Below, in pieces: positions 6,394 to 31,690 of a stretch of 32,000 nucleotides of DNA. The position numbers and the translations under genes are program-made. The stretch covers positions 5,056,278 through 5,088,277 of the forward strand of contig NZ_CP189852.1 in the NCBI RefSeq assembly GCF_050235535.1. The letters are read 5' to 3'. The DNA comes from Aliinostoc sp. HNIBRCY26 (lineage in GTDB: Bacteria; Cyanobacteriota; Cyanobacteriia; Cyanobacteriales; Nostocaceae). The stretch's first letter is position 1. Each line of letters starts with the position of its first letter. The notes beneath the pieces were generated by a model. It was not told the DNA's origin, ran no database searches, and saw only the letters and a program-made list of their open reading frames with translations.

Positions 6394-7599
6394 ATGATGA
6401 GATTACAGGCAAAGTCACTAGGTGAGAATCCTCAAGATTGGTTTTGGCCGTTCTGGTTGGCTTTGCCACTTTATCCCTACTACAAACGGCGGACAATTTG
6501 TCGAGAAGTAGTCAAAGATACTATTTGGACATTTGATCAACTGCATGGCATTCTCTACGCCATAGTTCCCATTCGCATGACGGTGATCAAACTAGATGCA
6601 GGTGGTTTGTTGGTTTATGCACCTGTGGCGGCAACGTCAGAGTGTATCAAACTAGTTAAGGATTTGGTCGCTAGGCACGGAGAAGTTAAGTACATTATTT
6701 TACCGACTAGTTCGGGTTTAGAACATAAAGTATTTGTGGGGCCATTTGCGAGATGTTTTCCCCAAGCCCAGGTATTTATTGCCCCTCACCAGTGGAGTTT
6801 CCCCTGGAATATGCCCCTGAGTTGGCTAGGGTTTCCCCAAAAGCGCACACAGATACTACCAGAAGATAGTAGTCAAGCTCCCTTTGGTGATGAGTTGGAC
6901 TATGCAATTTTAGACATTAATTTGGGGGGAGGCGCATTTGTAGAGGTGGCGATGTTGCATAAGCGATCGCGTACTCTCCTAGTCACTGATACAGTATTAT
7001 CCATACCCGAAGATCCACCTGCCATTAGCCAATTAGACCCCTATCCTCTGCTATTTCATGCCAGAGAACACGCACAGCAAACAATAGTAGATAACCCCAC
7101 CAACCGCCGCCAAGGATGGCAACGCATTTGTTTATTTGCCATTTACTTTCGTCCTAGCACGCTGCAAATCACTGGTTTATGGCAGATGTTTCGTGATGCT
7201 ATGCAAGCACCAGATCACTCACATAAGGCTTACTTTGGCTTATTTCCGTTTCGCTGGCAAGAAAACTGGCAGCATTCATTTAACGCCTTGCGAGGTCATG
7301 GTAGACCATTTGTCGCCCCTATTTTACAAAGTCTGATTCTGCCCCAAGACCCAAATCAAGTAATTAACTGGGCAAATCGAGTTGCCAAATGGGATTTTCA
7401 GCAGATTATCGCCTGTCATTTTGATGCACCATTTGCTGCGAGTCCCGATGAATTTCGTCAATCCTTTGCTTTTTTGGAGAACAATTCCTCTAGGATGAAT
7501 CTGCAACCTCTACTAGAAACAGATATGCGATTCATCAAGGAGTTAGAAAGTAATTTAGTACAGCGAGGTATCGCTACACCAGCTAAAAATCGGATTTAG
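6394..7599 (+). CDS. DUF4336-like conserved protein (function unknown)
   Basis: 401-aa ORF with ordinary composition. The N-terminal WPFWLALPLYPYYKRRT and TIWTFDQ...VPIRMTVIKL pattern is what I recall for DUF4336 proteins of cyanobacteria and plants. The family call is from memory only. Confidence 0.65.
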   Translation: MMRLQAKSLGENPQDWFWPFWLALPLYPYYKRRTICREVVKDTIWTFDQLHGILYAIVPIRMTVIKLDAGGLLVYAPVAATSECIKLVKDLVARHGEVKYIILPTSSGLEHKVFVGPFARCFPQAQVFIAPHQWSFPWNMPLSWLGFPQKRTQILPEDSSQAPFGDELDYAILDINLGGGAFVEVAMLHKRSRTLLVTDTVLSIPEDPPAISQLDPYPLLFHAREHAQQTIVDNPTNRRQGWQRICLFAIYFRPSTLQITGLWQMFRDAMQAPDHSHKAYFGLFPFRWQENWQHSFNALRGHGRPFVAPILQSLILPQDPNQVINWANRVAKWDFQQIIACHFDAPFAASPDEFRQSFAFLENNSSRMNLQPLLETDMRFIKELESNLVQRGIATPAKNRI

Positions 7600-27206: not shown

Positions 27207-27923
27207 ATGAGCAGCAATTTAGCAAACAAACTGCGTGTTGGTACAAAGAAAGCCCACACAATGGCAGAAAACGTGGGTTTTGTCAAATGCTTTTTAAAAG
27301 GAGTAGTAGAGAAAAGCTCTTACCGGAAGTTAGTGGCTAACTTCTACTACATCTACTCAGCGATGGAAGAGGAGATGGAAAAGCACTCCCAGCATCCGAT
27401 TGTTTCTAAAATTAACTTTACCCAACTCAACCGTAAGCATACCTTAGAACAAGACTTAAGTTACTACTATGGTGCTAACTGGCGGGAACAAGTCAAGTTA
27501 TCTCCAGCCGGGGAAGCTTATGTCAAACGCATTCGAGAAATTTCTGCTACCGAACCAGAATTATTAATTGCCCATTCTTACACCCGTTACTTGGGTGACT
27601 TATCTGGTGGACAAATTCTCAAAAACATTGCTGTAACAGCCATGAACCTCAATGATGGCCAAGGTACAGCCTTCTATGAATTTGCAGATATTACCGACGA
27701 GAAGGCATTTAAAGCAAAATATCGCCAAACTTTAGATGAACTACCTCTAGATGATGCCACAGGCGATCGCATTGTTGATGAAGCTAACGCCGCCTTTGGG
27801 ATGAACATGAAGATGTTCCAAGAACTAGAAGGTAACTTAATCAAAGCCATTGGTGTGATGTTGTACAACACCTTAACTCGTAAACGCACACGCGGTAGCA
27901 CTGAACTAGCAACTGCTGAGTAA
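27207..27923 (+). CDS. ho1: Heme oxygenase 1
   Basis: 238 aa, near-colinear with my memory of Synechocystis HO-1 (LR.GTKK.H.MAENVGFVKCFLKGVVEK.SYRKLV, HSYTRYLGDLSGGQILK, DEAN.AF.MNMKMF.ELEGNLIKAIG). Confidence 0.93.
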   Translation: MSSNLANKLRVGTKKAHTMAENVGFVKCFLKGVVEKSSYRKLVANFYYIYSAMEEEMEKHSQHPIVSKINFTQLNRKHTLEQDLSYYYGANWREQVKLSPAGEAYVKRIREISATEPELLIAHSYTRYLGDLSGGQILKNIAVTAMNLNDGQGTAFYEFADITDEKAFKAKYRQTLDELPLDDATGDRIVDEANAAFGMNMKMFQELEGNLIKAIGVMLYNTLTRKRTRGSTELATAE

Positions 27924-28002
27924 TATCAATTCGCAATTCATTAAGGCTGAATTTCGGAGAATGGTAAAGAGTAAACTTTTGTAAAGTAAGTTTAAGTAAA
28001 AT

Positions 28003-28066
28003 TTAGGGGCAAACTCCCCAGGTTCTTCTGCTTTTAGCAGATGTTCTTGAGGAAGTTGCCCCTAAT
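28003..28066 (+). terminator. Long imperfect hairpin downstream of ho1
   Basis: TTTAGGGGCAA (28003-28013) pairs with TTGCCCCTAA(T) (28056-28066). An inner TCTGC-tttta-GCAGA stem is present. There is no clear U-tract. Confidence 0.35.
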
Positions 28067-28364
28067 GTTTTGGGCTATATGATTGCTTTAGTTGAGTCGG
28101 AGTCAAAGAGATAATGTAATTATGTAATTACATTTACATTATTATTGAATATTTATATAAACGGCTCTTCCGTAGGTGTTATGCTAAAATTTAAACTCAA
28201 ATTAGGGATTTGCCTTTAAAATCAAGGGTTTCAGGCAGTTCAAGCCTAGATTTTCTCCCAAAATCTAAAACGTCAAGATTAAAAGCTGTCTTCCTTGCCC
28301 AGCAAAGGATATGAGCTAATTTATAGACATTTTCAGCATAACAAGTAATGAAGAACCATATAAA

Positions 28365-28784
28365 CTACATTTTAGGACTTACTTTGTCCATAAACTGACG
28401 AAAATTTTTATTGCATAATTTTTCATCAAGAAAATCAATTTCAGTTAAAATGTCTATAAACTGTGACAAATACCCATACTCTTGGATATTCTCGCTTTCT
28501 TGATTGACCTGTGTAGGTGAGCTTGTGTTTTTACAACCTAGAGTATAGTAATCAATACCGTTTTGTGCTTTTGATCTCAGCTTATCTATTTCACTTGATA
28601 ATTCTTTTATTTTTTCATCAAATGAATTAATAATGTTTAAAGGATTAAAGTTATTTTTTATAAGGATATTAAATACATCCTTGGGATTCAGAAAATTTGG
28701 AATTGAGTTAACTTCATTCTCTAGATATATCAACTTTTTTTTAATGTCATTCACTAATTTTTCATAAGCTGCATTTCTTTCCAT
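28365..28784 (-). CDS. Hypothetical 139-aa Asn/Lys/Glu-rich helical protein (AT-rich cassette, gene 2)
   Basis: ORF in a visibly low-GC segment with no TM helix and no motif I recognise. It lies 45 nt downstream of the 164-aa ORF on the same strand. Confidence 0.55.
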   Translation of the reverse strand: MERNAAYEKLVNDIKKKLIYLENEVNSIPNFLNPKDVFNILIKNNFNPLNIINSFDEKIKELSSEIDKLRSKAQNGIDYYTLGCKNTSSPTQVNQESENIQEYGYLSQFIDILTEIDFLDEKLCNKNFRQFMDKVSPKM

Positions 28785-28829
28785 CTTTTAGCCACTCACA
28801 AAAAATACTTATATTTTAATAAAATTAAA

Positions 28830-29324
28830 TTAAGAGCGAGAAAAAGGTAATAACTTTCTTAAAAAAGACGGTAGAAAATGCTTTTCGACGATTTCACTAA
28901 ATTGCCACTGTAAAACTGAATTTGAAATTTCTTTAATATTTCCTAATATTTGATTTATAAAATCAAGAGCTTGAATCCACAGATTGTCTCTCAAATTTTT
29001 ATATGTCTCATTATAACTTCTTTCAAGTTCTTCAAGTTTATCACGTAAATAGAACTGTTTTTTTTCTAGCTCATCTTTCTGCTCTTTTGAAATTAAATCT
29101 TGGATATCCTTCATTGTAGAGATTGTTTTTTCTACTTGATTAGCTTTTAACTTGCAGCGAACAATAGATTCTTTTTTGCTTTTTAGAGCATTATCTATTT
29201 CGAGAGCTTTGAATGTGAATTTATTTGTGTTATTGGATTTAACCTCTAATTCGTTCACACTGTCAACTTCTTGGCTTACTTGTGTGCTTAAAAATGTGAT
29301 TTTATCTTTCAGTTCGTTGTACAT
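28830..29324 (-). CDS. Hypothetical 164-aa coiled-coil protein (AT-rich cassette, gene 1)
   Basis: ORF with heptad-like K/E/L pattern. Its N-terminal segment LKDKITFLSTQVS resembles IKKKLIYLENEVNS of the downstream ORF. I recognise no family. Confidence 0.55.
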   Translation of the reverse strand: MYNELKDKITFLSTQVSQEVDSVNELEVKSNNTNKFTFKALEIDNALKSKKESIVRCKLKANQVEKTISTMKDIQDLISKEQKDELEKKQFYLRDKLEELERSYNETYKNLRDNLWIQALDFINQILGNIKEISNSVLQWQFSEIVEKHFLPSFLRKLLPFSRS

Positions 29325-29591
29325 GATTTGATTATTACCTGTAATATATGTATATTCAAGACATTAAATGAACTAAACAAACAATGACATTTTCAGTATA
29401 ATTTTACTCACATCTTGCACCAACCGTAGATACCCTTAAAAAGAAGATCAACAGCATAAAAGTATAAAAATAATCAATTATAGGAGAGCGATTTTTTCGG
29501 GGGAGATGGGCAAGAATTAAGCAAGGGGTTTAAACATCAATCATCCCAAAGACCTTGAAACTTGGTAGACGCAAGTTCGGTAAAAATCGAA

Positions 29592-29805
29592 GCATTTCGC
29601 TTTGATGTCGTCATACTCCCATAAACCGCCAACCAAGGCGATCGCACTTTTAGCTCATTGGTGACTCAATGCCTTACCGTTGGTGCATTTCACTTCGATG
29701 TCGTGATAAATCTATTTCCCGCCCAAAACCGCGATCGCTCATTGGGTTAATTACTAGTTGAATGCCTTACCGTCGCTGCATTTCGCTCCGATATCGTCAT
29801 ACGGT
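29592..29805. repeat. ~93-nt tandem repeat, about 2.3 copies, each unit carrying a HIP1 site
   Basis: Units start with GCATTTC at 29592, 29685 and 29777. Shared blocks are GCATTTCRCTYYGATRTCGTSATA, GCGATCGC, CTCATTGG and AATGCCTTACCGT. Confidence 0.7.
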
Positions 29806-29874
29806 TATGCAATTTTGCTTTAAACACCCCCACATCATCAGCAGCATTGCGAATTGGGAATTGGGCATTGGGGA

Positions 29875-29915
29875 GGCAGTGCGTTACTTTGGTTTCCAAA
29901 GTTGTAGCAACTGCC
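29875..29915 (-). terminator. Nested hairpin 43 nt downstream of the groEL stop
   Basis: The outer stem is GGCAGT/ACTGCC (29875-29880 with 29910-29915). The inner perfect stem is ACTTTGG-ttt-CCAAAGT (29886-29902). There is no U-tract. Confidence 0.35.
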
Positions 29916-29957
29916 GTCATTGGGTAGTTTCCCATGCCCCATGCCTCATGCGCGATA

Positions 29958-31690
<1,733 letters not shown>

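Follow-up and report, generated by a model that had tools for sequence, protein, structure and literature searches.

A 32,000-nucleotide stretch of the genome of the cyanobacterium Aliinostoc sp. HNIBRCY26 (RefSeq assembly GCF_050235535.1, contig NZ_CP189852.1, positions 5,056,278 to 5,088,277; hereafter the window) carries two small adjacent genes, here called A and B, in a segment of AT-rich DNA between ho1, which encodes heme oxygenase, and groEL2. We are highly confident that A and B are real, paired and patchily distributed genes lying in a hotspot, and that a 16-nucleotide (nt) direct repeat that brackets them is not an insertion junction. The fuller reading, to which we give an even chance, is that they constitute a mobile, AT-rich orphan operon whose products form a coiled-coil complex tied to conflict systems that are linked to nucleoside triphosphatases (NTPases).

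The segment had been singled out beforehand from the letters of the window (hereafter the original prediction) as a foreign-looking two-gene cassette, and the coordinates and lengths then given for the two open reading frames (ORFs) are exact. The genes are co-oriented and separated by a gap of 45 nt. Their low G+C content, at first estimated by eye, was borne out by calculation in 300-nt steps, which gave 0.24-0.30 over 28400-29400 versus 0.40-0.52 in ho1 and groEL2. Overall G+C and G+C at third codon positions (GC3) are 29.1% and 25.5% for A, 27.4% and 25.0% for B, 42.1% and 41.8% for ho1, and 45.4% and 39.2% for groEL2, with 40.7% G+C for the full window. The cassette is compositionally foreign. 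The flanking genes had also been named correctly, as their Pfam matches confirm. The features of the junction, numbered along the window, are listed below.

27207-27923, (+) strand: ho1 (Pfam PF01126, 296 bits), the left flank of the hotspot
27998-28070, (+) strand: conserved terminator-like hairpin 3' of ho1, an inverted repeat with 35-nt arms
28079-28132: short palindromic mini-element, common to the window and Nostoc sp. CMAA1605 only (blastn)
28133-28358: left part of the strain-specific segment, AT-rich and non-coding, holding the left copy of the 16-nt repeat
28359-29484, (-) strand: cassette core (promoter region, gene A and gene B), 27.4% G+C
28365-28784, (-) strand: gene B, 139 amino acids (aa), from the ORF list
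28830-29324, (-) strand: gene A, 164 aa, from the ORF list
29485-29819: right part of the strain-specific segment, non-coding, with tandem units from 29587
29820-29957: region 3' of groEL2, 91% identical to CMAA1605 and missing from relatives with an empty junction, with ATTGGGA heptamers
29958-31670, (-) strand: groEL2 (Cpn60 with a GGM tail; Pfam PF00118, 275 bits), the right flank of the hotspot

A strain-variable junction between ho1 and groEL2

The ho1 protein was used to fetch 80 Nostocales loci from species-representative genomes, across which it is 89-99% identical, and the window was compared with these loci by blastn. Five relatives have an empty site: Trichormus sp. M33_DOE_039 (L007), Anabaena minutissima FACHB-250, Anabaena sp. 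4-3, Nostoc parmelioides and one metagenome-assembled genome (MAG), the set comprising loci L007, L009, L010, L011 and L023. In these genomes ho1 faces groEL2 directly in convergent orientation, and the two stretches alignable with the window are only 86-287 nt apart, which bears out the earlier suggestion, based on the gene order of another strain, of an insertion into a conserved convergent junction. Homology to the empty-site genomes stops at about 28074-28078, just past the hairpin (left end points were taken from blastn against L007, L008, L011 and L023), and restarts at the groEL2 stop codon, at about 29958-29977. The groEL2 flank was matched by blastn in L006 and in all five empty-site loci.

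The closest relative is Nostoc sp. CMAA1605 (L006), whose flanks are 95-96% identical at the nucleotide level. Its match to the window breaks off after 28132 and picks up again at 29820; between these points it carries an insert of 1376 nt (L006 6936-8311) that is unrelated to the cargo of the window. This insert contains an 80-aa antitoxin-like ORF followed by a putative truncated PIN-like start, recognized by eye, and also has an AT-rich gene for a protein of 300 aa whose C-terminal domain is HEPN (Pfam, 26.9 bits; cut-off 22). A third cargo, again unrelated, follows the ho1 hairpin in Trichormus sp. M6_bin.1_H (L008 6873-7617), where the contig ends; it holds an ORF of about 116-140 aa on the minus strand that has no Pfam match. 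Hand translation of the same cargo also showed the possible start of an HTH-type ORF.

The junction therefore combines conserved flanks with five empty sites and three different cargos (window, L006 and L008), and because the two closest relatives hold different cargo at the same spot it is a strain-variable hotspot. Since homology to CMAA1605 ends at 28132 and resumes at 29820, the strain-specific segment is 28133-29819. In blastn against the fetched loci its left part, 28133-28358, matched only itself, and its right part, 29485-29819, had no homologue. To judge from these comparisons, the event is better described as replacement of cargo in an occupied hotspot than as a simple insertion.

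Variable hotspots of this sort, in which defence or toxin-antitoxin genes replace one another between conserved core genes, are familiar from the pan-genomes of E. coli and Pseudomonas. The ho1/groEL2 junction resembles them in its conserved flanks, in being empty in some relatives, in its AT-rich cargo, in the presence of three cargos in three close strains, and in the HEPN protein and toxin-antitoxin remnants held by the sister strain. It differs in being only about 1.7 kb long, in lacking an integrase, in lying between two convergent terminators, and in that a defence role of its cargo is a possibility only. Empty or filled with one of three cargos, the junction offers a clean, small natural swap site in Nostoc and Anabaena, useful for studying the exchange of accessory genes without dedicated recombinases.

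Two gene families and their travelling cassette

Homologues are very few but full-length. For A they comprise a protein of 166 aa in a Nodularia MAG (72% identity), one on a Logan contig (76%) and the copy in Nostoc sp. NIES-2111 (94%); for B they were found in NIES-2111 (93%) and on an ENA contig (79%), and a MAG has a fragment of 100 aa. Ratios of nonsynonymous to synonymous substitution rates (dN/dS, Nei-Gojobori) were 0.29 for A and 0.19 for B against the Nodularia MAG, and 0.095 for A (with a frameshift repaired) and 0.16 for B against NIES-2111, over a range in dS of 0.2-0.6. Because these ratios are 0.1-0.3, both frames are under purifying selection, and A and B are real genes. The contrary reading, that they are spurious frames in AT-rich non-coding DNA, could appeal to the few GC-rich stop-free constraints in such DNA and to the lack of a family match for either protein. 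It is refuted by these ratios, by the full-length conservation of the frames in three genomes, and by homologues at 20-40% identity that keep the same gene order in at least seven further contexts; we consider it virtually impossible.

Both families are very small. An exhaustive search with a hidden Markov model profile of B recovered 18 clusters among 1.84 billion representative proteins, and a profile search for A recovered 18 proteins among 5.8 billion; wherever a host is named it is a filamentous cyanobacterium, of the genus Nostoc, Nodularia, Mastigocoleus or Calothrix. Exact look-up of the two proteins in the assembly index found nothing on record, and single-protein metagenome scans added nothing new. 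As had been noted beforehand, neither protein contains a recognizable motif: coiled-coil noise aside, searches of A, B and other members of the two families against Pfam, NCBIfam, PHROGs and PADLOC (PADLOC-DB v2) yielded no significant match, and profile searches against PDB sequences returned coiled-coil noise only (apolipoprotein, keratin and the like). Several individual matches were rejected. That of B to SNaCT8 (E 0.12) was absent at E<=0.01 in the 19 family members scanned, that of A to PbeC (E 5.5e-4) was compositional and was not reproduced in other family members, and coiled-coil matches of other family members to LmuB and JetC were likewise compositional. The N-terminal likeness between A and B, from which tandem paralogy had been proposed, exists as a match of 24 columns; it is not significant, the profiles of the two families align with an hhalign probability of 0.3%, and by this comparison A and B are not detectable paralogues. 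The pair defines two families without a Pfam match that are found only together.

AlphaFold2 models built from four-sequence alignments were all-helical and of low confidence, with A a single long helix (pLDDT 62) and B less well predicted (pLDDT 47). Maximum KD19 hydrophobicity was 0.57-0.65 in the window proteins and up to 1.8 in distant members. A carries a conserved C-terminal L-P tail, also present in distant A-like proteins. Many distant B proteins (family members P0013, P0017, P0018, P0019, P0020, P0021 and P0024) end in D-W-x-x-L-x-L after a low-complexity linker, a tail that the B of the window lacks and through which a TPR or Hsp70 partner might dock.

The cassette itself also occurs elsewhere. 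By blastn the core, 28359-29484, is 92.7% identical to DNA of NIES-2111 (L002) over 1129 nt, and 28365-29359 is 79.5% identical to the Nodularia MAG. The copies in L001, L002 and L004 stand in differing contexts and have the same 28% G+C. In the Nodularia MAG the cassette is 1.4 kb downstream of a tRNA-Gly(TCC) gene, in NIES-2111 it is 0.2 kb downstream of the 3' half of tRNA-Gly(TCC) (an identical stretch of 45 nt), and in the MAG represented by L004 a fragment of B is 0.67 kb downstream of tRNA-Pro(GGG). The tRNA-related sequences near the cassette are at L001 5545-5615, L002 7042-7090 and L004 7257-7330, and L002 and L004 share about 160 nt of post-tRNA DNA at 75% identity. This pattern fits cargo near the tRNA-proximal end of integrative islands, and the tRNA-linked copies suggest a family of tRNA-targeting islands. 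The NIES-2111 cassette neighbours genes for a NACHT-WD40 protein, for a PIN/MazE pair and for HsdR, a type I restriction subunit; the neighbours in L004 are PIN toxin-antitoxin pairs, and a diverged A-B pair is located on a plasmid of Calothrix PCC 7716 (L099).

Not every copy is intact. Gene A of NIES-2111 has a -1 frameshift, with an A7 run in place of the A8 run of the window (L002 7720-7735), next to an intact B; the same frameshift is present in an independent read assembly (L003), and this gene may be a pseudogene or contain a slippage-prone tract. One MAG keeps only a 303-nt piece of B. From this remnant and the frameshift it follows that the cassette also decays.

Low G+C, small genes of no assigned function and, in other genomes, nearby tRNA genes would also be expected of a remnant of a prophage or other virus, an origin that the original prediction had entertained. 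Such an origin is nevertheless highly improbable: A and B have no relatives in IMG/VR viral contigs, B gave no tblastn match in 50,697 phage genomes, matches to PHROGs were insignificant, and the approximately 10 neighbourhoods of the pair contain no phage genes.

The direct repeat and the borders of the cassette

The 16-nt repeat that brackets both ORFs is present as claimed, with its two copies agreeing at 15 of 16 positions.

28326-28341, (+) strand: left copy, GACATTTTCAGCATAA, 18 nt beyond the stretch in common with other copies of the cassette
29386-29401, (+) strand: right copy, GACATTTTCAGTATAA, 83 nt inside that stretch

These are the sole two matches to the 16-mer in the window (0.08 expected). 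When the variable segment was shuffled with its dinucleotides preserved, about 8% of the shuffles (24-25 of 300) contained a 16-nt direct repeat with at most one mismatch; by a rough post hoc estimate this share falls to about 1% if the copies must bracket both ORFs. Allowing up to two mismatches, the 16-mer had no match in 1.12 Mb of related loci that included the five empty and two alternatively filled sites, so it is not the common repeat that it might have been. From the shuffle frequency and this absence, the repeat is real and non-dispersed but only modestly improbable.

The original prediction had read the repeat as a duplicated target or att-like core left by site-specific insertion of 28342-29401. 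Its position around both ORFs, its rarity in shuffles and its non-dispersed nature are what such a model would lead one to expect. Against this, the DNA shared with NIES-2111, 28359-29484, does not end at the repeats, extending 83 nt beyond the right copy and stopping 18 nt before the left one. No second copy lies 3' of gene B in either NIES-2111 or the Nodularia MAG, the 16-mer is absent from the sister genome, and none of the empty sites examined, of which none is exactly isogenic with the window, contains the single copy that had been anticipated. The strain-specific segment, 28133-29819, exceeds the repeat-bounded unit, and no recombinase, integrase or transposase was found in it; its only supported ORFs are A and B, which have no family match. 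Site-specific insertion at the repeat is accordingly a very doubtful account of these borders.

The right copy, which reads TTATACTGAAAATGTC on the gene strand, contains a -10-like TATACT (29395-29400) that is invariant in three loci, the other letters of the 16-mer being variable. In the window and in NIES-2111 a TTGGTG (29418-29423) stands 17 nt upstream of it. Because only TATACT is invariant and TTGGTG is suitably placed, the right copy likely overlaps a -10 element, and its conservation is limited to these six letters. The repeat is incidental to the borders of the cassette and is not an insertion junction. An integron attC-like reading of the 16-mer was tried by eye and rejected, as GCATAAC misfits the RYYYAAC consensus of such sites. 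The left copy is overlapped by one arm of a perfect 14-nt inverted repeat, at 28320-28333 (TTTATAGACATTTT) in the 3' flank; the other arm, at 28447-28460 (AAAATGTCTATAAA), lies in the coding sequence of gene B, and the two could pair in the mRNA of the operon.

Several further repeats were observed around the cassette. The palindromic mini-element directly after the ho1 hairpin forms the left edge of the variable segment; 28079-28132 is 80% identical to L006 6887-6935 (blastn), and the L006 element (6887-6940) is a perfect palindrome with arms of about 22 nt. At the other end, 29587-29865 consists of three tandem units of about 93 nt each, 72-83% alike, with a conserved 30-nt head TCGNNGCATTTCRCTYYGATRTCGTSATA; units 1 and 2 also carry GCGATCGC (HIP1) sites, and no copy of the unit was found among 100 related loci. 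Heptamers are repeated in tandem 3' of groEL2 (ATTGGGA x3.9 at 29846-29872 and CCCATGC x3 at 29931-29951), and in Trichormus M33_DOE_039 the spacer of the empty site is made up of similar heptamers, of GGGATTG type (L007 6877-6905). They resemble cyanobacterial STRR-type repeats. The groEL2 ORF as called opens at a GTG 13 codons upstream of a conserved MAKIISF start, and translation probably begins at the ATG near 31631. An Rfam scan of 27800-30100 found nothing real.

Distant relatives, proposed role and known systems

Homology of the distant A-like genes to A is supported by hhalign (probability 92.7%, E 4e-7). Each B-like gene is immediately preceded by an A-like gene of 159-176 aa in all the contexts recovered, and the pair is usually below its surroundings in G+C. 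The gene orders of these contexts are as follows.

L088-L091: A, B, a GrpE-like protein (321 aa), a divergent Hsp70 (580 aa) and a DnaJ protein with TPR (520 aa)
L086: RHH protein, A, B, a GrpE-like protein (351 aa) and Hsp70
L099 (Calothrix PCC 7716 plasmid): CHAT-TPR (divergent), A, B, a DUF697-like protein and a dynamin-family protein
L096/L097: caspase-NACHT, HEAT/DUF1822, A, B, DUF1822 and NACHT
L087, L092 and L098: A and B alone, preceded in L092 by a ParE-like protein and small ORFs

The Hsp70-type and dynamin-type genes downstream of A and B are on the same strand as the pair. The Hsp70 of L088-L091 scores 405 bits, below the DnaK equivalog cut-off of 648, and the N-terminal stretch of the GrpE-like protein in L086 appears to form transmembrane helices. 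None of the associated Hsp70, GrpE, DnaJ and dynamin proteins matched a PADLOC model. The DnaJ-TPR protein of L088 (5726-7288) also has a CFI-box-CTERM domain (NCBIfam NF041770, 50 bits against a cut-off of 40).

The core at 28359-29484 is a horizontally mobile, AT-rich two-gene operon of the minus strand, comprising promoter region, A and B. It has no mobility genes of its own and is passive cargo, exchanged or replaced, that now occupies the hotspot between the hairpin after ho1 and the region 3' of groEL2. The neighbourhoods of the relatives lead to the following proposal. A and B would form a hetero-oligomeric coiled-coil complex that acts as a client, sensor or effector scaffold, and an NTP-driven remodeller (Hsp70 or dynamin) would assemble or disassemble it within a conflict- or immune-type system of multicellular cyanobacteria. 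We infer complex formation, NTPase coupling and a conflict role alike, and a remodelled coiled-coil complex in particular because the pair lies upstream of Hsp70 or dynamin gene sets or in a caspase-NACHT-DUF1822 locus. The copy in the window is a stripped-down orphan, having no adjacent NTPase and a B without the C-terminal tail; it may act alone, may use chaperones encoded elsewhere, or may be decaying.

A number of observations weigh against this proposal. The window, L001, L087, L092 and L098 have no adjacent NTPase gene, so NTPase coupling is not obligatory. The B tail was considered as a marker of Hsp70 partners and fits L086 and L088, but the correspondence is imperfect, as L098 has the tail and no adjacent Hsp70. 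Neither A and B nor their associated chaperones and dynamin match any PADLOC model beyond coiled-coil noise, and the poor models of the two proteins lend no fold-level support. Only about 10 independent contexts stand behind the linkage, and because Nostocales genomes abound in toxin-antitoxin and STAND genes the neighbourhood association is weak. A more far-reaching version would make A and B the client or sensor core of an undescribed cyanobacterial immune or programmed-death family, in which a dedicated Hsp70-GrpE-DnaJ/TPR triad or a dynamin-like GTPase controls the assembly of a two-protein coiled-coil effector and the window has a minimal, self-sufficient cassette of 1.1 kb that moves among hotspots and tRNA-linked islands; this we regard as rather unlikely. 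Should A and B be true clients or effectors, their two genes in 1.1 kb would be a small experimental entry to the little-understood NTPase-linked conflict systems of multicellular cyanobacteria; should they be inert or decaying, the segment would be an ordinary strain-specific islet.

The original prediction had also offered a toxin-antitoxin or defence pair. A defence or addiction-type role is plausible from the neighbourhoods, and to that extent the suggestion stands; no match to a toxin, antitoxin, known defence or phage family accompanied it. In the specific form of a type II toxin-antitoxin (addiction) pair, kept in hotspots because its loss harms the host, the idea accords with two small co-oriented, presumably co-transcribed genes that are mobile, AT-rich and patchy, with islands rich in toxin-antitoxin genes, and with the HEPN protein and toxin-antitoxin remnants of the sister strain at the same hotspot. 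In NIES-2111 the inactivated partner is A alone, as if a toxin A had been lost first. However, no toxin or antitoxin family match was obtained in Pfam, NCBIfam, PADLOC or PHROGs, and no RHH, HTH, AbrB or Phd DNA-binding domain or other toxin or antitoxin fold was detected in A or B. Both proteins are long, helical, coiled-coil-like and of similar size, and even relatives with as little as 20% identity keep the pair at the 5' end of larger clusters of Hsp70 or dynamin genes, which is atypical for such modules. An addiction pair is thus improbable. As for known anti-phage systems, the only resemblances (PADLOC-DB v2) are the isolated, weak coiled-coil matches to PbeC, LmuB and JetC, in one family member each.

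Alternatively, A and B might be structural or membrane-remodelling helical proteins of a PspA/Vipp1- or phasin-like kind that serve stress physiology and are handled by Hsp70 or dynamin. The all-helical predictions, the moderately hydrophobic or amphipathic segments of distant members and the putative N-terminal transmembrane helices of the GrpE-like partner in L086 are in keeping with this, as are the DUF697-like and dynamin partners, which belong to membrane-associated families. There is also a precedent in chloroplasts, where VIPP1 oligomers are known to be remodelled by Hsp70/GrpE/DnaJ. The extremely rare and patchy distribution of the pair among billions of proteins, its location in variable hotspots and on a plasmid, and its foreign composition speak against a housekeeping function; the window proteins are not hydrophobic, and neither A nor B has sequence similarity to PspA/Vipp1. 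A structural role seems unlikely on balance.

A cyanobacterial GrpE-DnaK1-DnaJ3(TPR) chaperone system has been linked to type IV pili (McDonald et al. 2022, in the account given by PMC12288463). Like it, the L088-L091 triad consists of GrpE, Hsp70 and a TPR-containing J-protein. The L088-L091 Hsp70 differs in being a short, divergent paralogue (580 aa; 405 versus 648 bits), the GrpE-like protein beside A and B is long and in one case apparently membrane-anchored, there are no pil genes near the A-B triad, and A- or B-like genes are not reported for the DnaK1 system.

A published parallel lies in the combinations of Hsp70/GrpE/DnaJ-TPR with GTPases, CHAT/caspase and STAND proteins that have been proposed as NTP-dependent conflict systems of multicellular prokaryotes (Kaur, Burroughs, Iyer and Aravind 2020; PMC7159879). 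DUF1822 TPR proteins, which flank A and B in L096/L097, have in turn been linked to caspase systems (PMC8195603). The A-B pair is not described in either paper, and the published Hsp70/GrpE theme, unlike A-B, is centred on GAP1-N2 GTPases in actinobacteria and firmicutes (PMC7159879). Of the core NTPase that characterizes these systems there is none between ho1 and groEL2; because it lacks an adjacent NTPase partner, the window copy is not classifiable as a complete member of this type. Such an NTPase is present beside the relatives of the pair in L086 and L088-L091 (Hsp70) and in L099 (dynamin). The relatives of A and B thus resemble the published systems in standing directly upstream of Hsp70, GrpE and DnaJ/TPR genes or of a dynamin-family GTPase, in having CHAT-TPR, caspase-NACHT and NACHT-WD40 neighbours, and in being borne by named hosts that are all filamentous, that is, multicellular.

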